This document shows, piece after piece, positions 3,093 to 38,788 of a stretch of DNA of 64,000 nt (position 1 is its first letter; every line of letters starts with the position of its first letter). The translations under genes and the position numbers were made by a program. The stretch is from an uncultured Verrucomicrobiae bacterium (GTDB lineage: Bacteria; Verrucomicrobiota; Verrucomicrobiia; Opitutales; Opitutaceae), in the NCBI GenBank assembly GCA_963800005.1, contig CAWCZH010000006.1:1690226-1754225 (forward strand), in the 5' to 3' direction. The notes beneath the pieces were generated by a model. The model was not told the DNA's origin and ran no database searches. It worked only from the letters and a program-made list of their open reading frames with translations.

Positions 3093-3197
3093 AATGTCCC
3101 ATGAGGGGCGTCGCGTGCTCGCCAGCTATATAGCACTATATAGACTACGGTGCGCATCCCGTCTCGATTCTCGGTGCCGCGGAACTGCTGCCGATAT

Positions 3198-3863: not shown

Positions 3864-4090
3864 CGACGCCATATACGAGGGACCGAGGCTGGGCTGCTCT
3901 TCGAAACGTCGGCGCCCTGTCGCGGCCCGCCTGGCCCGGGTCGGCCGACGAAGCGCGCTTCGCCCGAAGCCGTCACGCCGGCGACTCGTCGGGGCGTCAT
4001 ATGCATGTATGCATATATGATAACGGCGGGCGAAGCAGTATATATAGCCATGCGCGAGGCGGAGAACCCCTCGCGACCCGCCGCCGGGCG

Positions 4091-10085: not shown

Positions 10086-10276
10086 GCGAAAACGGGCACC
10101 GCCCGCGGCGGGAAGGCAAGTCGCGACGGACAGATTACGCCAGTTTGTAGCGACTCTCCGGTGATGACGCGGCGCGGAAAATGAGCCGCCTCACAGTTAC
10201 GTATACTATACCTGTGTATATATATGAATGTGTACATTCCGGCGAATAGCGTATTCGGCTTGGATATCCGGCGGTT

Positions 10277-26705: not shown

Positions 26706-26862
26706 CCGTCCGCCGGGCCCCGCCAACGGGCCTGGAAGTCAGAGATATATAGCGTGGAGTATATTCGAGCCATATACATATACCCACATGTATATATGGG
26801 TTTGTGTATAGATCTATTTCGCGCCTGCCGCTGAAGACGTGGCCGGCTGCGCGGCGCGGGGG

Positions 26863-29322: not shown

Positions 29323-29605
29323 GCCGCTCGCCAAGCCGGCGAACGACGCAGCCCTGACTATCCGCTCGGTCTCCGCGCGCCAGCGACCCCGCCGGCCGCC
29401 GTCCGCGAGCGGCTGAGTATATAGCGGCGGAATTCGGCCGGCCTCTATATTATTTGCCGTCGTGTATATTCATGCGCGCCGGACCCCCGGCGTTAGTTCG
29501 GGAGCGTCTTCGACGAAAGGATTTTTCTTCACGTGCGGCGAAGTCGGGGAAACAAAGTTTCGAACTCTGTTTCTCCAGGGAAATAGTTTATACCGTATTT
29601 TCCCC

Positions 29606-30799
29606 ATGAGACGTTTTCTTATCCCGCTGCTTTTCCTCGCTGGGTTATGGTCGCTTCGCGCCGAGACGTCGGTGTCACCAGCGGCCACCGTGGACCCGGT
29701 AACCAGCCTGCAGAATTCGCGGCTCCAGTTCGAGCGGACGCTGCGCGGCAACGTCGCGTTCCTCGGTGGATCAATCACCGAGATGGAAGGATACCGCCCG
29801 CGGGTTTGTGCGGCTTTGCGGGCGCGGTTTCCGGACACGGTGTTCACGTTCACGAACGCGGGGATCTCGTCCACCTGCTCGAACACGGGCGCGTTCCGAC
29901 TCGATCACGACGTGCTTTCGCGCGGGCCGGTCGACCTGCTCGTTGTGGAGTTTGCGGTCAACGATGACCAGGACGGCGGGTTCTCGCGCACGCAGTGCAT
30001 CCGCGGGCTCGAGGGCGTGGTCCGGCACGCGCTGCAGGCGAATCCATATACGGATGTCCTGGTGGTCTACTTTGTGAATCAGGCGCACCTGCAGGCGTAC
30101 CAAGCAGGCAAAACACCGCTCGCGATTTCCGCTCACGCCGCCGTGGCTGATTATTATCGGTTGCCGACGATCAACGTCGCCGAGGCGCTGGCGGCGGCGA
30201 TCGGGCGCGGGGAGATGACATGGCAGAAATATGGAGGTGTGCATCCCGGGCCGGCCGGCGCTGATTTCTGTGCGCAGTTGTTCAGCCAGCTGTTCCAACG
30301 CGCCTGGAATGGACCGGTGGCGAGCGACGCGCGCGTGGCGCCGCATGCGGTGCCAGAGCGTCCGCTCGATCCTTATAGCTACAGCCGCGGCGAGTATATA
30401 GCACCCGACCGCGCCCGCGTCGGCAGCGGGTGGGTGCTGGGCGTGCCGGACTGGGGGAAGCTCGCGGGCTCGAAGCGCGAGCGGTTCACGTCGGTGCCGA
30501 TGCTCTCGGCCGACACGCCCGGCGCGGCATTGACGCTGAAGTTTTCCGGGTCGGCGGTGGGAGCGTATATAGTGTCCGGCCCCGATGCCGGAGTGGTGGA
30601 GGCGAGCATCGACGGCGGTCCGGCGCGGCGGATTGTCCTGAAGACGCCGCACAGTGGCGGGCTGCATTATCCGTGGACGGTGATGTTCGCGGACGAGCTG
30701 CCGCCGACGGATCATATATTAGACCTGAGAATCGCGGACGAGCCCGGCAGCGGAGGCCACGCGATGAGGATCATGCAGTTCGCGGTGAATCCGCGGTAG
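29606..30799 (+). CDS. Secreted SGNH/GDSL-family hydrolase with C-terminal beta domain
   Basis: Signal peptide MRRFLIPLLFLAGLWSLRA. Block I FLGGSIT (GDS-like Ser) and a downstream DxxH-type region. Probably a carbohydrate esterase. Confidence 0.7.
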   Translation: MRRFLIPLLFLAGLWSLRAETSVSPAATVDPVTSLQNSRLQFERTLRGNVAFLGGSITEMEGYRPRVCAALRARFPDTVFTFTNAGISSTCSNTGAFRLDHDVLSRGPVDLLVVEFAVNDDQDGGFSRTQCIRGLEGVVRHALQANPYTDVLVVYFVNQAHLQAYQAGKTPLAISAHAAVADYYRLPTINVAEALAAAIGRGEMTWQKYGGVHPGPAGADFCAQLFSQLFQRAWNGPVASDARVAPHAVPERPLDPYSYSRGEYIAPDRARVGSGWVLGVPDWGKLAGSKRERFTSVPMLSADTPGAALTLKFSGSAVGAYIVSGPDAGVVEASIDGGPARRIVLKTPHSGGLHYPWTVMFADELPPTDHILDLRIADEPGSGGHAMRIMQFAVNPR

Positions 30800-30838
30800 C
30801 GGCCGGCCGTGTGAGGTGGTCGAAGCTTTTTCTTATCA

Positions 30839-30958
30839 TGGATTTCATCAAACCGGCCCGGATTGCGCCGAACACCAGGCATCAGCAGCCGGACCATGCT
30901 GCTATATACTGCTGTTCCGGGGATCGGATATTCCGTGCCGGATTGATGAAATCCGTGG
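30839..30958. repeat. Roughly 120-bp element bounded by 19-bp inverted repeats (atggatttcatcaaaccgg … ccggattgatgaaatccgt)
   Basis: The arms at 30839-30857 and 30938-30958 are reverse complements with 17 of 19 positions matching. The element lies between the convergent SGNH and flotillin genes. Confidence 0.4.
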
Positions 30959-31102
30959 TTAAAAAACAGCGCGATCACCGTAGCAGCGCCGACCGCCGAT
31001 GCCGTGTACCCGGTGCCTCCTTCATATAGCGGTCGCTATATAGGAAGTCATATATAAAAAAGCCCACCCGTTTCCGGGTGGGCTGGCTCAGGGGGACGGC
31101 GG

Positions 31103-32923
31103 TTACCGCGGGATCGCCACGGGGGCGAAGGCTTTCACTTCCTTCTGGATCAGCCCGGCGACGAGCATCTCTATAATGGTCGAACCGGATCCATTCCCAT
31201 TCCCGCCCGCCATGATATCTGGAACGAGCTTCTGCCCGCTTGCGGCTAAGGCGCGGGCGACTTCCACGCGCACGTAGTTCTCGGCATCGGTGGCGGCCAC
31301 CTTTTGCTTGATGACCTCCGCCTCGGCCAAGCCTACGAGCTTTGTCTTCTCAGCCTCGGCGCCACCGACGACTTTTAATACATTGGCATCAGCGTTCGCG
31401 AGGGTCGTCCGCGAGCGGGCCTGGCCTTCGGCTTGCTTGATCGACGCCTGGGCAGCGAAGTCCGCGATCGCGACGCTGCGTTCGGAGTCGACGACCTTTG
31501 CTTGGGTGTCGGCGAGGGCGCGGGCTTGCTGCAGCTCCTTGCGCACGCCCTCGGCTTTGCGCTGCGTTTCAAACGTCACCTCTTCCTGCTCCGCGATTTT
31601 GCGGTCGGTCAGCGTCTTCATCAATTCCGCCGGCGGCACGATATCGCCGATGAGCGTGTCCACCGCGCCGACATTATATTGCGCGAGCGCGGAGCCGATT
31701 TTCGCCTTCGCATCGGCCTGGCGCTCTTCGCGTTTTTTCAGGAACTCGATCACGTCCGAACCTTGCGCTGCGTTGCGGAAGTAATTTCCGATCGTGGGCT
31801 CGAGCACCTGGGTGACGAGATTCTCCATACTGCCGAAGCGCGCGATGACCTTGGGCGCGTCGTTGCGCGGTATATGAATGATCTGGCTCACATCCAGGTT
31901 GAAGCGAAAGCCGTCCGACGAACGCACCGTGATGGTCGAGAGTTTTTCGTCGAGCCGGTGCGCCTCCGATTTTCCCGTCGCCCAGTTGAGCACGACGTTG
32001 GCGGTGGGGACGTTCGCGACGCTATGGGTGCGGGGATTGATGGGATACCGGCCGGGGTCAAGTGGTTCGACCCACACGCCCTTCTTGCCCTTCTCGACGA
32101 GGTTGCCGTGGCGAAATGACTCGCCGGTGATGTCTTTTCCTTCCGGCCCGATATATGAAATGACGACGCCGGCGTGCGCGATCGGGACAACTGTCATGTC
32201 GACGGTCTCGATCGTGGCGAAGAGCGGGTTGACGAAGTAGCAGCCGGAGAGCAGCACCTGCTCCTGCAGGCCTTTATATCCACCTGCGGCAATGAACGCC
32301 TCGCCGTTCTGAAACATATTGTGATTCTCGACGCGGGTGCCGGCGATCTCGCCCGTGGGCAGGCCTTGGCCGTCCTTGGTGGTGACGATGCCAATGCGGT
32401 TGTCCTGGATTTCGAGGACGTCGACCATCGTCACCGAGAACAGCTCGGTGTTGATGCGGTAGGTCCCGGGCGGGATGATGGCGATCTGCGGGCCGCGTTG
32501 TCCGCCGTTCTTCAGAAACGCGCGGGCGTTCTGGAAGGAGTCGCATTCGACGGCGCGCGAGAGGACGCGGCCGTGGGAGAGAGGGATGCCGTCGCGGGCC
32601 TCGACGATGCCGATTTTTCCCTCTTCGACGTCGATGAACGGAACGAGGCTGATAGTATATTGCCACGGGTAGAGCCAGCTGTGCATGCCGGGCGCGAGTG
32701 TGTCGGCCTGGATGCCGGCTTCACCCTCGAGTGCGATGATGGCGCCGTCGGGCAGGGTGCGCCTGGTGCCGACGAGTACATAGCGTTTCGTGACGATGCC
32801 GACGCGGTTGTTCGGGATGAGGACGATGCCGAGGAGGCGCAGGACGAGCTTGTAGCAAACGAGCAGGAGCACGAGCGCGCCGAGCCACCATAGCCCCATG
32901 ACCGCTGACGATGAGAGATTCAT
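31103..32923 (-). CDS. Flotillin-like SPFH/band-7 protein
   Basis: N-terminal TM segment, an SPFH domain, and a long Ala/Glu/Lys/Gln-rich coiled-coil tail (…AEQEEVTFETQRKAEGVRKELQQARALAD…). Confidence 0.85.
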   Translation of the reverse strand: MNLSSSAVMGLWWLGALVLLLVCYKLVLRLLGIVLIPNNRVGIVTKRYVLVGTRRTLPDGAIIALEGEAGIQADTLAPGMHSWLYPWQYTISLVPFIDVEEGKIGIVEARDGIPLSHGRVLSRAVECDSFQNARAFLKNGGQRGPQIAIIPPGTYRINTELFSVTMVDVLEIQDNRIGIVTTKDGQGLPTGEIAGTRVENHNMFQNGEAFIAAGGYKGLQEQVLLSGCYFVNPLFATIETVDMTVVPIAHAGVVISYIGPEGKDITGESFRHGNLVEKGKKGVWVEPLDPGRYPINPRTHSVANVPTANVVLNWATGKSEAHRLDEKLSTITVRSSDGFRFNLDVSQIIHIPRNDAPKVIARFGSMENLVTQVLEPTIGNYFRNAAQGSDVIEFLKKREERQADAKAKIGSALAQYNVGAVDTLIGDIVPPAELMKTLTDRKIAEQEEVTFETQRKAEGVRKELQQARALADTQAKVVDSERSVAIADFAAQASIKQAEGQARSRTTLANADANVLKVVGGAEAEKTKLVGLAEAEVIKQKVAATDAENYVRVEVARALAASGQKLVPDIMAGGNGNGSGSTIIEMLVAGLIQKEVKAFAPVAIPR

Positions 32924-33507: not shown

Positions 33508-36398
33508 CTATAGCGTTGTCGGCGTGGCGGACCCGTAGTAAAGCCCGTTGAAGAACAGCTTGAACGTGCCGTGCGTTGTGGCGCGGAAGGTCGCCTCGAG
33601 GCCGAGGAGGACGAGCTTGCCGCGGCCGATGCTCGCCTCGGCGGCGATGCTGCCCTGGTCGAGGTACTGCTGGCCGAGCGCCCAGCCGCTATATAGAGGC
33701 GTCTTGCTGTCGAACCACGCGAGCCGGTTGACCTTCACCGGCGAGTTCGTGATCGGCGCGAAGACCGGGCTGCTGTCGAAGAAGATATATCCTTCCGAGG
33801 GCATGCCGTAGGCGACGGGATTCTGGTTGTCGAACTTCGCGCGCAGGATCGAGCCGGGCACGTAGAACTTGTCGCTCGGCAGCGGCTTCACCGTGCCGTC
33901 GGGAGCGGTTTCCACGAGGTGATTCTTGACCGGCAGGCCCATCTCCTGGCCCACCACCGCGGAAGAACCGAGCGCCAGGATCGTGCCGCCTTCATCGACG
34001 AACGTCTTCAGCGGCGGGACCGTCTTCGCCTCGCTGACGCCGCCGAGCATCGAGCGGTATTCCTCGGGGATCGACGTGGCCTGCGGGCTGTAGCTGGCAC
34101 CACCCGACCCGGCGAAGCCAACGCCGTAGTTGGTCGTCATCACGCGTTGCACCCGGGCGGCGTCGGACGAGCGCGCACCCGCGGCGAACGACTGACTGGG
34201 GAACACGAGGACATCGAAGCTGGTCTTCAGGTTGCCCGCGTCGAGAACTTGCGGATATATCATCTCGAAGGGGAATTCATATTGCTCGAAGATCCAGCGC
34301 ACCCAGCCCGACGGCATCAGGCCGCCGTAAAGATCGAGCAGGCCGATGCGCACGGGCTTGAGCTTATACGCTTCGCCGGTGGGCTTCTGCGTCACGCCGT
34401 ACGCGGCAACGCCCAATTCCTTGGCGGCTTTTTCGAGGATCGGCTGGGCCGCGGGAGATGCCGGGATCCAGAGCGACCCGGTGCCGAGCCCGATGCCACC
34501 GACCGTCTGCTCGTCCTTGAGCCAATATACATCGGCGCCCGCCTTGAGCAGGCGGTTGGTGAGAATGATCGAATCGTTTTCCTTGTGGCTAACGAGGTAG
34601 CCGACGGGATTCGCCGGGCCTTGCACACTGGCCACGGGCGGTGCCTCGAGATCCGAGGTGACCTTGGCGAACGGCCCGTCGAAGCCATCGAGGATCGAGT
34701 CGTAGGTCACGCCCATCTGCTTCGCGAGCGTCCAGCCCGCGATATCATACGGCGGGATCGGCGGGCCGCCGGGATACGCGAAATCGTTCGGGTGATCCTG
34801 TGGTTGGAACATATCCATCACGAACGGCCGAAACGCCTGCGCGGCCTTCACTATATATGAACCGGCGGGGTAGGATTTGCCGGCGACGGTGAACGCCGCG
34901 GTGGCCTTGTGGATGGTGATGCCGTTCTTCATGAGCGCGTTGATGAATTTCACCGCGGTCGGAAAATCGGGCTGGTCGGCCGGAATGATATAGCCGCGCG
35001 GATCGCGCTCGGCCGGATCCTGGAGCACGCTCTCGTAGAAGCGCGTGGGCACGACGGCGGCGCTCAGTCCGCCGGCGTTCATGACGCCGCTGACGGTGAG
35101 ATCGCGGCGCAGGCCCGGGACCTCGGGTTCGGCGGCGTTGACCAGCGCGTTGATGCGCTTCGGGGAAATCGTCCAGTTGTCATGACTGCCGCGTTCGATC
35201 GAATTCTTGCCCATGCGATATATATTCAGCAGCAGGAGCTCGCGATTGCGGGAAGCGTAATCCATGACCGCGCGATTCATCTCGATCGAGTAGTCGACCG
35301 ACTGGCGGTAATGCCAGGTCTGCGGCTTGATCGGCATCGGCCAGTCGCCCTGCGGCAATTGTTTATTGGGCGCGAGGCCGATCGCCATCGGGTTGGGTCC
35401 GCCGATGATTTCGGTCAGGATGCCGATCTGATTGTGGAAATACGGGGTCGGTGCGGCCGCCGCCGTTCCACCACGTCGAATAATTGGCGGCGGAGCGCAT
35501 CGCGGAGCCGGCCATGCCGTGCGAGATGAGACGCTCGTGAATCGCCATCGCCGACGCGGTCGATGCCGATCGGGATCAGCGGATCGAGGTTATAGTTGAA
35601 CGGATCGCGGAATGGCGGAATGAACACCACCTGGCCCTCGGGGCCCGGTCTGGTGGTGATTATACATGATCTGCGGGAACCACTCCCGGTAGAGGATGCG
35701 GTTGATATTAATCGTCTCCGGCATGCTTGCCATGAAGAAGTCGCGGTTGTTGTCATGGCCTATATACTTTTGATACATCCGCGGCACGCCGACGAACGAG
35801 CGGTTGGTCTCGTCGGGCTCGCGCATATACCAATTCGCGATGAGCTCGACGCCGTCGGGGTTCGCATTGGCCGCGAGCAGCACGACGTCGTCGCAGGAAA
35901 CGCATCGTCTCCGGGTCGGTGCGGCTGATCATCTGGTACACCCATTCGCTGAGCGACTGGGAATGTTCGCTCTCCGAGGAGTGCATGCCGCCGTCGATCC
36001 ACACGACGGCCTTGCCTTCGGCGGCGAGGGCCTGAGCCTGATTTTCGTCCACGCCCTCGGCCAGCGCGAGTTTCTTGCGCGATTTCGCGCAGGCGGTCGA
36101 GCTTCGCGAGGTTGGCCGGCGAGCTGATGATCGCCATATATTGAGGACGTCCCTCGGCGGAGTTGCCGATGCTCACGAGCTTCATGCGGTCGGACTCGGT
36201 CGCCCATTTTTTCCACATCGCCGTGATCTGAGTATAGTTGGCCATGTGGTAATCGGCTCCGATATCGAAGCCGATGATGGCCTTGGGGGGCGTGATCTTG
36301 GGCGGCGTGGGAGCCGCGTTCGCCCAGAAGGGCAGGGTGAGTGCGAACAAGCCGGCCACGAGCCGGAGCGAGGATCGTCGAATCATATAGTGTGCCAT
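33508..36398 (-). pseudogene. M14 family zinc carboxypeptidase, disrupted by multiple frameshifts
   Basis: The N-terminal signal and M14 start (MIRRSSLRLVAGLFALTLPFWANA…NYTQITAMW…) are in one frame. The next M14 blocks (…VVWIDGGMHSSESEHSQ…, …NPDGVELIANWYM…YQKYIGHDNNRDF…, …FNYNLDPLIPIG…) fall in three other minus-strand frames between about 35.4 and 36.1 kb. The long 626-aa C-terminal frame (33508..35388) is intact. Confidence 0.7.
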
Positions 36399-36945
36399 GG
36401 AAAGAAACGTCGGGAAACGCCGGTGTCGGCAGGGAGAGCGGGAAGCTCCGATCGGAAGGAGACTCCCGGAATCGGGATAATGTCCATCTAGCATTTTGCC
36501 GGCCGTGGCCCAGTGCACAAGCCGGGCGCCGGTCATCAGAAGTCCCGCTAACGACGCGCGCCCGCAGGGCTAACGTCAGCCCTCCCAGCGTGTCGCAGTT
36601 CGTCGGCCCGGCGCAAGGCGGCGTTCCATTGATGCCGCCGGGCTGCCCCGGGCCATTCGCTGATATATATCTCTGTGTCCTCCACAAACCTCATATATAC
36701 ATATAGTGAATATGTAGGTATATGCGACCCACCACGCGGCCCGCCCATGCGGCGGGCTGAGGGCGATCGCGGGGCTGCTGCCGCGTGACGTTGCGTAGGG
36801 CACCGATCGGCGGGGGGCGGGGTCGGCAGCGGCGGTCGCGATCTTCGTGCAAGCTCGCGCTCGCCTTTCCCAAAAAAAGAGCCTAACGAATTCTTGGACC
36901 CTGCGTCTTTGCTGGCTCCTTTTTGCTCCGCCCGTTCCACCTCCT

Positions 36946-37509
36946 ATGAAGCTTTCAGCTGTCCTCGTCCTGACTCTTTCCCTTGCGCTGAGCCCGGCGC
37001 TCCTGCCCGCCGCGCCGGCGTCGGCCACGCCGCCTGCCGCCGCGAAGGTGGATGAGTACGCGGGCGCGCAACGCTATATACAAGTTTACGAGTGCAATGG
37101 TGATAATTGCCGGCGCATCACGCTCGCTGATGCGCAACTCGTGATCGAGATCCCGGACTCGGCTGCGCCGGAAAGCGGGGATGCGTTTGCGACTGGGAAA
37201 AAGCAGGTGATCAAGCTCGATCCGGCGGTCGCGAATGCGGCTTGGGAGAAGATCATGAAACTCGACGTGCTCAAGTGGCGCGGGGGTTATGATGCGCGGG
37301 ATCTCGGGCAGGAGGACTCGGGCGGCACCGAGTGGTCGATGGAAGCCCGCATCGGCAAGGACAAGCGCCGGAGTCGCGGCGTGAACGCATTTCCCGGACT
37401 CTCGCCCCTCGGCATCCCGCAGCTCGGCGGCGGCGGCAACGTGCCGGATTCCGAGAGTGCCTATAGCGAGCTGATGGACATCTTCAAGGCGCTGTCGCAC
37501 GGCAAGTAA
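36946..37509 (+). CDS. Hypothetical secreted protein
   Basis: Signal peptide from MKLSAVLVLTLSLALSPALLPAAPA. About 187 aa. No recognised domain. Confidence 0.45.
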   Translation: MKLSAVLVLTLSLALSPALLPAAPASATPPAAAKVDEYAGAQRYIQVYECNGDNCRRITLADAQLVIEIPDSAAPESGDAFATGKKQVIKLDPAVANAAWEKIMKLDVLKWRGGYDARDLGQEDSGGTEWSMEARIGKDKRRSRGVNAFPGLSPLGIPQLGGGGNVPDSESAYSELMDIFKALSHGK

Positions 37510-37604
37510 TCGGCGAGGCGGCTTGCGGCCGTGCAGCAATTATATAGGTATGCATATACATATATGTACGGTCGGGGAGTGGCGGTGCGTGAGACTTCAG
37601 TGAT

Positions 37605-37650
37605 CGGGGCGTTTTTTGTCGCGGAATTCGTCAAACCGGCACGGATTTCA
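37605..37650. repeat. Second copy of a ~45-bp intergenic element (…tttttgtcgcggaattcgtcaaaccggcacggatttcactcgg…)
   Basis: It matches 30826-30870 at about 80% identity. Both copies share the core TCAAACCGGCMCGGATT and would encode (D/E)F(I/V)KPARI(A/S) if translated. Confidence 0.35.
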
Positions 37651-37828
37651 CTCGGACTCAGGCGACTTATATAGTTGCCTTAGGATTGAGTAATCCATGT
37701 TGGATTGGTCTAATCCCTGTCAAAAGAAACGGTGCGATCACCCCGGATCGACCATATCCCCCCTGAAAGCTGGGAGGGGCCATGGCGGAACGCTTGCGCG
37801 ATGGCCGCGCGTGTTTGACGATGCGCGC

Positions 37829-38788
37829 ATGAAAATCGCCGGCCAGTTTCCCGAGGAGATGAGTGCTGACGGCGCGTTCGAGCGACAGGAGGACGCGTTT
37901 CGAAATTTCGTCTCCGCTGACGGATCCACTCCGTTCCCGGCGGAGGCGGATCGCTATCATCTGTATGTTTCGCTGGCGTGCCCGTGGGCGCATCGCACCG
38001 TGATCGCGCGCCAGCTGTTTGGACTCGACGGTGTGATCGGGCTGACCGTCCTCGATCCCGTGCGCGACGAGCGCGGCTGGGCGTTTCGCGATGGCGACGG
38101 ATTTTCCCGTGATCCGGTGAATGGCTTCCAATTTCTCGCCGAGGCGTACGAGGCGTCGCAGCCGGGATACCGGGGGCGTTTTACGGTGCCGGTGTTGTGG
38201 GACCGAAAGACGCGGCGGATCGTCAATAATTCCGAAGATGATATCTGCCGCATGTTCGATGGCGCGTTCGCGGCGTTGCGCGCCGGGGCGGGCAGGACCG
38301 CGAGCTGGTTTCCGCCGGCGATCGCGGTCGAGCAGCGGGAGGTATCGGCTGCGATCTATACACAGGTGAACAATGGTGTATATGAATCCGGCTTCGCGAC
38401 GCGCCAGCCGGTATATGAACGCGCCTGCCGCGAGGTCTTTGCGGGGCTGGACCGGTGGGAGGCGCGGCTGACGTCGCAGCGTTTTCTTTTTGGCCGCGAG
38501 CCGGTCGAGTCGGACTGGAGATTGTTCTGCACGCTCGTGCGCTTCGATGCGGTTTACTATAGCCACTTCAAGTGCAACCTCCGCCGCATCGTCGACTACC
38601 CGGCGCTGCACGGATACCTTTGCGATCTCTATAACCAGCCCGGCGTCGCCGCCACGGTGCGGCTGGACCACATCAAGAATCATTACTATATAACTCACGA
38701 CGATATCAATCCGACGCGCATCGTGCCGGTGGGCCCGATCCTGAGCTTCGCCCGCGATCCCCGGCGGGAGCAGCTCACTGGCAGCTGA
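37829..38788 (+). CDS. yqjG: Glutathionyl-hydroquinone reductase (Xi-class GST, YqjG/ECM4-like)
   Basis: The hallmark DRYHLYVSLACPWAHRT (Cys-Pro-Trp-Ala) active-site motif is present. The N-terminal region matches the E. coli YqjG N-terminus as recalled from memory. Confidence 0.85.
   Translation: MKIAGQFPEEMSADGAFERQEDAFRNFVSADGSTPFPAEADRYHLYVSLACPWAHRTVIARQLFGLDGVIGLTVLDPVRDERGWAFRDGDGFSRDPVNGFQFLAEAYEASQPGYRGRFTVPVLWDRKTRRIVNNSEDDICRMFDGAFAALRAGAGRTASWFPPAIAVEQREVSAAIYTQVNNGVYESGFATRQPVYERACREVFAGLDRWEARLTSQRFLFGREPVESDWRLFCTLVRFDAVYYSHFKCNLRRIVDYPALHGYLCDLYNQPGVAATVRLDHIKNHYYITHDDINPTRIVPVGPILSFARDPRREQLTGS

Follow-up and report, generated by a model that had tools for sequence, protein, structure and literature searches.

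Small palindromic repeats are frequent in the intergenic DNA of bacteria. The Correia elements of Neisseria and the ERIC/IRU elements of enterobacteria are imperfect intergenic palindromes of ~100-160 bp, which are often co-transcribed with a neighbouring gene and whose RNA hairpin influences processing or stability. Correia elements can also supply promoters, duplicate a TA target and occur in hundreds of copies. Prokaryotic MITEs are defined by a length of 50-800 bp and by terminal inverted repeats of at least 10-15 bp (PMC11602168), while REPINs are inverted REP doublets mobilised by RAYT transposases (PMC3116915). Verrucomicrobia are unmentioned in the main text of the 2024 MITE census (PMC11602168), and a limited full-text literature search found nothing relevant on MITEs in Opitutaceae or Opitutus.

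The window considered here is the whole 64-kb stretch of DNA that was analysed, which comes from an uncultured member of the Opitutaceae (Verrucomicrobiota). A sequence-only reading had flagged within it a 45-bp match between two intergenic sites. The match forms one arm of a palindromic, MITE-like repeat of ~150 bp, which lies in intergenic DNA in two copies 6.8 kb apart. With about even probability, the pair descends from a non-autonomous, MITE-like palindromic repeat restricted to the lineage, of which both copies are old and diverged. The two copies, their parts and the neighbouring genes are as follows.

29462-30799, + strand: GDSL-esterase gene, with its stop codon 15 nt before the start of copy 1
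30815-30979, + strand: copy 1 of the palindromic repeat, 165 bp, RNA fold of -87.8 kcal/mol (z = -7.3)
30815-30862, + strand: left terminal inverted repeat of copy 1, GGTGGTCGAAGCTTTTTCTTATCATGGATTTCATCAAACCGGCCCGGA, which contains the core of the 45-mer
30863-30931, + strand: central core of copy 1, 69 nt, with TATATA at 30903; alone without significant self-complementarity (z = -0.85)
30932-30979, - strand: right terminal inverted repeat of copy 1, reading GGTGATCGCGCTGTTTTTTAACCACGGATTTCATCAATCCGGCACGGA on the - strand
31103-32923, - strand: SPFH/Band-7 gene, convergent with the GDSL-esterase gene, copy 1 lying between the two
36847-37509, + strand: gene encoding 220 aa, with its stop 89 nt before the start of copy 2
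37599-37742, + strand: copy 2 of the palindromic repeat, 144 bp, oriented as copy 1, RNA fold of -61.1 kcal/mol (z = -3.9)
37599-37650, + strand: left arm of copy 2, AGTGATCGGGGCGTTTTTTGTCGCGGAATTCGTCAAACCGGCACGGATTTCA
37683-37742, - strand: right arm of copy 2, the most decayed of the four, with the small palindromes GGATTGAGTAATCC and GGATTGGTCTAATCC and the - strand tip GGTGATCGCACCGTTTCTTTT
37829, likely start: gene for a YqjG-type glutathione S-transferase (GST), copy 2 ending 86 nt upstream

Both copies are built on the same plan. They share their outer tips (GGTGATCG...TTTTTT on one side and AAAAAA...CGATCACC on the other) and a subterminal core, GGAWTTCRTCAAWCCGGCMCGGA, around a poorly conserved centre. 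The layout is the same in all four arms, with the tip GGTGATCG followed by ~5 variable bases, a T-run and the core. In copy 1, the 48-nt arms (30815-30862 and 30932-30979) are 75% complementary and form the longest inverted repeat in the entire 64-kb window. The inverted 19-mer reported earlier, with 17 of 19 positions matching, is confirmed and is part of this larger structure. The inverted repeat of copy 2, which has the same tips as that of copy 1, had been overlooked. Its tips, GTGATCGGGGCGTTTTTT at 37600-37617 and AAGAAACGGTGCGATCAC at 37724-37741, cover 18 nt at 78% complementarity, and beyond them the arms also align further inward. Relative to copy 1, ~21 nt of the centre are missing in copy 2. 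The terminal inverted repeats measure ~50 nt in both full-length copies, which have no coding capacity.

The similarity of the two sites lies far above that of shuffled controls, a check that the sequence-only reading had itself named. Aligned locally, the two intergenic gaps reach at best a score of 41, as compared with 17.9 +/- 2.3 for 500 shuffles (maximum 30), and BLASTN between the copies within the window gives E = 6e-5 to 2e-4. The 45-bp match (30826-30870 and 37605-37650) is thus real, but its identity, put earlier at about 80%, is 31/45, or 69%. At its heart, a 17-mer, TCAAACCGGCMCGGATT, occurs exactly at 30848-30864 and 37631-37647 and in inverted form, with 2 mismatches, at 30930-30946. 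With up to 3 mismatches allowed, it has 5 matches in the window against 0.42 expected, a count that none of 100 shuffles reached. A 25-nt core (GGATTTCATCAAACCGGCCCGGATT in one copy, GGAATTCGTCAAACCGGCACGGATT in the other) agrees at 22 of 25 positions. Over their full length, the copies are identical in 109 of 141 aligned columns (77%), with a score of 91 in the same orientation against 68 in reverse. The four arms match an HMM built from them at E = 1e-15 to 1e-17, while the rest of the 64 kb never falls below E = 0.6. Pairwise identities among the arms range from 64 to 71%, with no excess within one element or between the left arms.

The claim that both copies occupy gene-free gaps holds in that the element is intergenic; the public GST call, P0121 (363 aa), nevertheless starts at an ATG at 37697, in the right arm of copy 2. 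Since the GST homologues, of 314-315 aa, span the whole 319-aa reading from the ATG at 37829, the first 44 residues of P0121 (37697-37828) are probably spurious. The consequence for annotation is that a GST call starting inside copy 2 would add 44 residues that do not belong to the protein. The best-named homologues of the Band-7 and GST proteins belong to Nibricoccus, Lacunisphaera, 'Candidatus Didemnitutus' and Oleiharenicola. Across copy 1, the window is identical to a 7.2-kb contig (L005) of an independent Logan assembly (ERR11523676).

Six genes of mixed orientation separate the two copies. The 29 window proteins scanned, which include those encoded between the copies, gave no match to a transposase, integrase or defence family, and the window is free of tRNA genes. 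An island bounded by two att-like repeats was considered and rejected, as the genes in between contain no integrase, transposase or defence family; the Band-7 gene located there, a conserved Opitutaceae gene, also counts against such an island. Direct reading of both copies revealed no integron attC core sites (RYYYAAC ... GTTRRRY). An integron array is further opposed by the 6.8 kb between the copies, by the six mixed-orientation genes that fill them and by the lack of an integrase family in the proteins scanned there.

The neighbourhood was compared with that of relatives through five sets of orthologue contigs, with identities of 89% and 78% for Band-7, 75-76% for GST and 65-68% for GDSL. 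The element was not found next to the Band-7, GST and GDSL orthologues in these Opitutaceae relatives, in which gene order is not kept. Because gene order differs at the orthologous genes, the relatives offer no clean empty site. In the relative whose Band-7 is 89% identical (contig L004), a XerC/D-type tyrosine recombinase gene at 113-1066 lies beyond a small divergent gene. At the matching position in the window (33508-35388), there is instead a 626-aa protein without Pfam, NCBIfam or PADLOC match. The Band-7 neighbourhood has therefore been recently rearranged.

The pair could also have arisen without any mobility of the element. An ancestral intergenic palindrome would have been copied once, for instance in a segmental duplication whose other traces have been lost, and both copies would have drifted since. 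Such an origin is in line with the sight of two copies only, 6.8 kb apart and in direct orientation, with the lack of target-site duplications and of a parent IS, and with the lack of copies in the public collections searched. However, the flanks of the two loci show no similarity beyond the element ends, and the homology stops sharply at the GGTGATCG tips, on both sides and in both copies, which fits a discrete unit better. Local duplication is considered unlikely.

Within the 64-kb window, neither nhmmer with the four-arm HMM nor BLASTN at word size 7 detected a third copy. An intergenic gap of 345 bp at 46836-47180 contains three weak partial matches to the core, of 22 nt (86%), 13 nt (100%, GGCGCAATCCGGG) and 17 nt (88%); the arm HMM gives E = 1.4 there, and the gap may hold a heavily decayed third copy or a chance resemblance. 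Outside the window, a degenerate 23-mer version of the core matched twice by chance in 185,579 GTDB species-representative genomes and once in JGI metagenomes. All three matches are without the repeat architecture and lie in coding DNA. A 19-mer version had no match in viral contigs, and BLASTN found no copies in plasmids. Pattern scans of this type are weak for diverged arms, as at ~75% identity 19 fixed positions match less than 1% of the time.

When set beside the definition of prokaryotic MITEs, the two copies agree with it in several respects. Their lengths of 165 and 144 bp lie within 50-800 bp, they have no transposase gene and no common ORF, and their terminal inverted repeats, with 48-nt arms in copy 1 and 18-nt tips plus inner arms in copy 2, exceed 10-15 bp. 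As for the multiple copies expected of a MITE, two are seen within 64 kb and no third. Target-site duplications of 2-10 bp are not visible in the flanks of either copy, which were read directly as tgtga/GGTGG...CACC/gtagc and cttca/GTGAT...CACC/ccgga (slashes at the element ends); they could have decayed away, the arms being only ~70% identical. Of the 29 window proteins scanned, none points to an autonomous IS whose ends would match. The MITE-like hairpin, or small dispersed palindromic repeat, is the best-fitting of the options that had been put forward from the sequence, its dispersal being shown only for two copies in 64 kb.

A rival reading of the same architecture is a cis-acting structured RNA. 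The hairpin, placed in the 3' UTR of the preceding gene or in the GST 5' leader, would have a function, be it that of a stabiliser, of an RNase III site or of an attenuator, and this function would explain why it has been kept at two loci. Both copies are indeed predicted to fold far more strongly than shuffles, copy 1 at -87.8 kcal/mol (z = -7.3) and copy 2 at -61.1 kcal/mol (z = -3.9); self-complementarity extends to the centre of copy 2 (z = -3.4), and both copies lie in the same orientation just 3' of a + strand gene. The strength of the fold is, however, not telling of function because palindromic DNA folds well on either strand, and a shared orientation of two copies is expected by chance in 50% of cases. 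The centre of copy 1 is unstructured, and it follows from its lack of self-complementarity that the layout is that of a MITE (terminal inverted repeats and a core) rather than that of a structure kept up to the apex. No Rfam 15 family matches anywhere in the window at gathering thresholds, and with E relaxed up to 10 there is only noise far below threshold, mostly on the neighbouring terminator. Furthermore, the element is absent beside the orthologues in relatives.

Covariation, proposed earlier as a check of a structured RNA, points in the same direction. Across the arms of the two copies, 28 positions are paired and invariant, 6 have changed on one side and a single one is compensatory, while in 26 columns pairing is lacking in one copy or more, or both copies have a mismatch, so that many pairs are broken in one copy or the other. 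One A.A mismatch is kept in both copies, CAAACC in the left arms standing against CAATCC in the right arms. Together with the lone compensatory pair, this conserved mismatch suggests descent from one asymmetric master copy and not selection on pairing, a comparison to which two copies lend little power. The evidence decides neither for nor against the sRNA or structured RNA raised at first; a cis-acting RNA maintained for its function appears improbable, and a MITE-like element remains the preferred reading.

Two further functions can be examined from the motifs carried by the arms. A transcription terminator module common to two gene ends, one of the possibilities first raised, finds some support in two mini-sites of hairpin plus T-run, one at each tip of copy 1 (+ strand, 30804-30822; - strand, 30981-30966), but the same terminator scan found none in copy 2. 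An intrinsic terminator would need the opposite order from that of the long hairpin, whose T-run stands 5' of the stem and whose A-run stands 3' of it, whichever strand is read. Transcription of Band-7 moreover has a canonical intrinsic terminator of its own at 31084-31055 (- strand), 75 nt from copy 1 and outside the element, in which a 10-bp stem (AGCCCACCCG/CGGGTGGGCT) is followed by TTTTTT running directly into TATATA. A terminator module is thus extremely improbable.

The second function is that of protein-binding DNA, in which the arms would carry operator-like palindromes, GGATT-N4/5-AATCC, symmetric, for a dimeric regulator or a nucleoid protein. Perfect GGATT-N5-AATCC is confined in the window to the two elements (30940 and 37702), and perfect GGATT-N4-AATCC occurs at 37683 in copy 2, though also at 46314 inside a gene. 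With up to 1 mismatch, the motif is found 6 times against the 1.5 expected, a count barely above shuffles, 2 of 100 attaining it, and neither left arm has the small palindrome in perfect form. No promoter is expected where copy 1 lies, between convergent genes, and the ~50 nt conserved per arm, tips and T-runs included, far exceed an operator. Binding of this kind is very improbable as the reason for the repeat. A LexA box (GAACA...TGTTC) in the centre of copy 1 was rejected, its arrangement and spacing being wrong.

Coding readings of the element do not hold. The peptide F(I/V)KPARI(A/S), announced for both copies, can be read in each of them, but no ORF is common to both; in copy 2, a stop closes its frame at 24 codons, and upstream of the core the two copies are put out of frame by an indel. 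A peptide-coding role was rejected for want of a frame or ORF common to both copies. An 88-aa ORF across copy 1 has no Pfam match and no sibling ORFs among 1.84 billion proteins, in which it gave only chance matches to tectonin-like repeat proteins. The suggestion that the pair is a remnant of duplicated gene ends is likewise unsupported: the element is palindromic, has no conserved frame and matched no protein family.

The history of the pair as a MITE-like element may be sketched as follows. The arms would once have been bound by a transposase whose gene lies elsewhere in the genome or has since been lost, and this enzyme would have put the element into two intergenic sites, 6.8 kb from each other. 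Later decay would have brought the arms to their present likeness of 64-71%, removed ~21 nt from the centre of copy 2 and erased any target-site duplications. As a side effect, each copy, located just 3' of a + strand gene, would place a long hairpin in the 3' UTR of read-through transcripts. Correia and ERIC hairpins of such a kind affect mRNA stability or RNase III processing. The central TATATA of copy 2 falls in a sigma-70-like match, TTCACT-17-TATAGT, that faces the GST gene.

The hexamer TATATA, found at the centre of both copies, turned out to be a phenomenon of the window at large. It was rejected as an element-specific feature, as 34 of the 42 intergenic gaps contain it; both copies have one because most gaps do. 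In this 63% GC window, TATATA occurs at 144 sites against 1.85 expected from dinucleotide shuffles. It is 68-fold over first-order expectation, while TATA alone is 8-fold over it. Examples are found at 3127/3137, 17149/17160, 21950/21961, 30903, 31037, 37541, 37668, 45405-45416 and 49947/49954. Among maximal alternating A/T runs, there are 148 of length 4, 111 of length 5 and 105 of length 6, then 34 of length 7 and 7 of length 8; 76 runs are exactly TATATA and 29 exactly ATATAT. The drop in run length after 6 and the excess of TATATA over ATATAT indicate that the hexamer is the favoured word and that repeat slippage is not the cause. The bases flanking TATATA form no extended palindrome.

The density of TATATA is 6.6 per kb in non-coding DNA against 1.3 per kb in genes, and is highest between convergent genes (9.5 per kb) and lowest between divergent ones (4.3 per kb). 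Inside genes, the word is found in all three frames. Of 39 Tyr-Ile pairs, 25 are encoded by TATATA, though ATA makes up only 13% of Ile codons, and TAT accounts for 64% of Tyr codons despite G or C at ~77% of third codon positions. Two TATATA sites, both in GDSL-orthologue loci (L008 and L009), were all that ~55 kb from Opitutaceae relatives contained, and the density of TATA is 0-1.2 per kb in the relatives sampled against 7.5 per kb in the window. When the Band-7 gene is compared with its 89% identical orthologue, most TATA/ATAT sites of the window appear as TACA/ACAT in the relative. The excess is not an artefact, as the independent Logan contig carries the same sites.

Several other repeats of the window touch on this pattern. 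Eight pairs of TATATA sites have a spacing of 10-11 bp. Two intergenic 30-mers, at 44358-44387 and 48313-48342, are 83% identical and contain the paired boxes GTATATA-N3-GTATATAGCGGCG; the + strand genes at 44539 and 48534 follow them at a distance of ~150-190 nt, and 7-8 more TATATA pairs at 10-11 bp spacing are found in other gaps. Paired TATATA boxes of this sort are a possible protein-binding arrangement. Short AT-rich tracts of strictly alternating purines and pyrimidines, such as TATATAGGTATGCATATACATATATGTAC, occur in intergenic DNA at 37541-37570 and also at ~4000-4046, 10205-10240 and 26780-26815, and may be related to the TATATA phenomenon. Of another nature are seven tandem copies of a 168-nt unit, 61-75% identical, at 40957-42117 inside a 948-aa gene (40947-43793, - strand). 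These are coding repeats, as the host gene encodes a pro-kumamolisin/subtilase protein with FG-GAP repeats.

By analogy, the TATATA pattern resembles HIP1 (GCGATCGC), the highly iterated palindrome of cyanobacteria (PMC4390886, PMC5861425), or DNA uptake sequences; no published description of a TATATA equivalent of HIP1 was found in the literature searched. This hyper-abundance is a more striking and more valuable lead than the repeat pair. By itself, the pair is of little weight, being old and of low copy number as far as seen. Were the family to prove abundant in the lineage, it could be used as a marker of these uncultured Opitutaceae and would provide a MITE-like case in a phylum in which no such element was found described. 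A bolder interpretation would see here the first sighting of a Verrucomicrobia-specific long-hairpin repeat family maintained by selection, either as a REPIN-like, vertically inherited replicator or as a structured 3'-UTR RNA, both copies being ordinary members of a large genome-wide population. This appears quite improbable.

The likeness to Correia and ERIC elements, reviewed in PMC3184786, and to REPINs is one of architecture and position only. As in Correia and ERIC elements, an imperfect palindrome lies in intergenic DNA, and copy 2 carries the sigma-70-like match at its central TATATA. The phylum is different and no sequence similarity is expected. Correia elements duplicate TA and number in the hundreds, against two copies without visible target-site duplication in this window.

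REPINs are comparable in construction. As in the present element, two inverted arms with a small internal palindrome (here GGATT-N5-AATCC) form a longer hairpin, which is extragenic and without target-site duplications (PMC3116915). The arms measure ~50 nt here against ~20-25 nt in REPINs, and the internal palindrome is imperfect in two of the four arms. No RAYT gene was present in the proteins scanned, and two elements were found in 64 kb. Membership in the REP/BIME type, suggested at the outset, is unsupported on similar grounds: units of that type are GC-rich palindromes of 20-40 nt, very numerous and with a RAYT gene between REPs, whereas the arms here measure ~50 nt, no RAYT/Y1-transposase family was found in the proteins scanned, and the 64 kb contain two elements.

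Bacterial MITEs (PMC11602168; reviews PMC10969869, PMC3184786) provide a further close comparison. The present repeat departs from them in showing no visible target-site duplication, no known autonomous IS that matches it and two copies, which are moreover 77% alike, whereas active MITE families are usually far more uniform. In all other respects compared, the two agree: the copies are 144-165 bp long, noncoding and intergenic, they are bounded by terminal inverted repeats of ~50 bp, they fold into a long hairpin, and their central sequence differs from one copy to the other.
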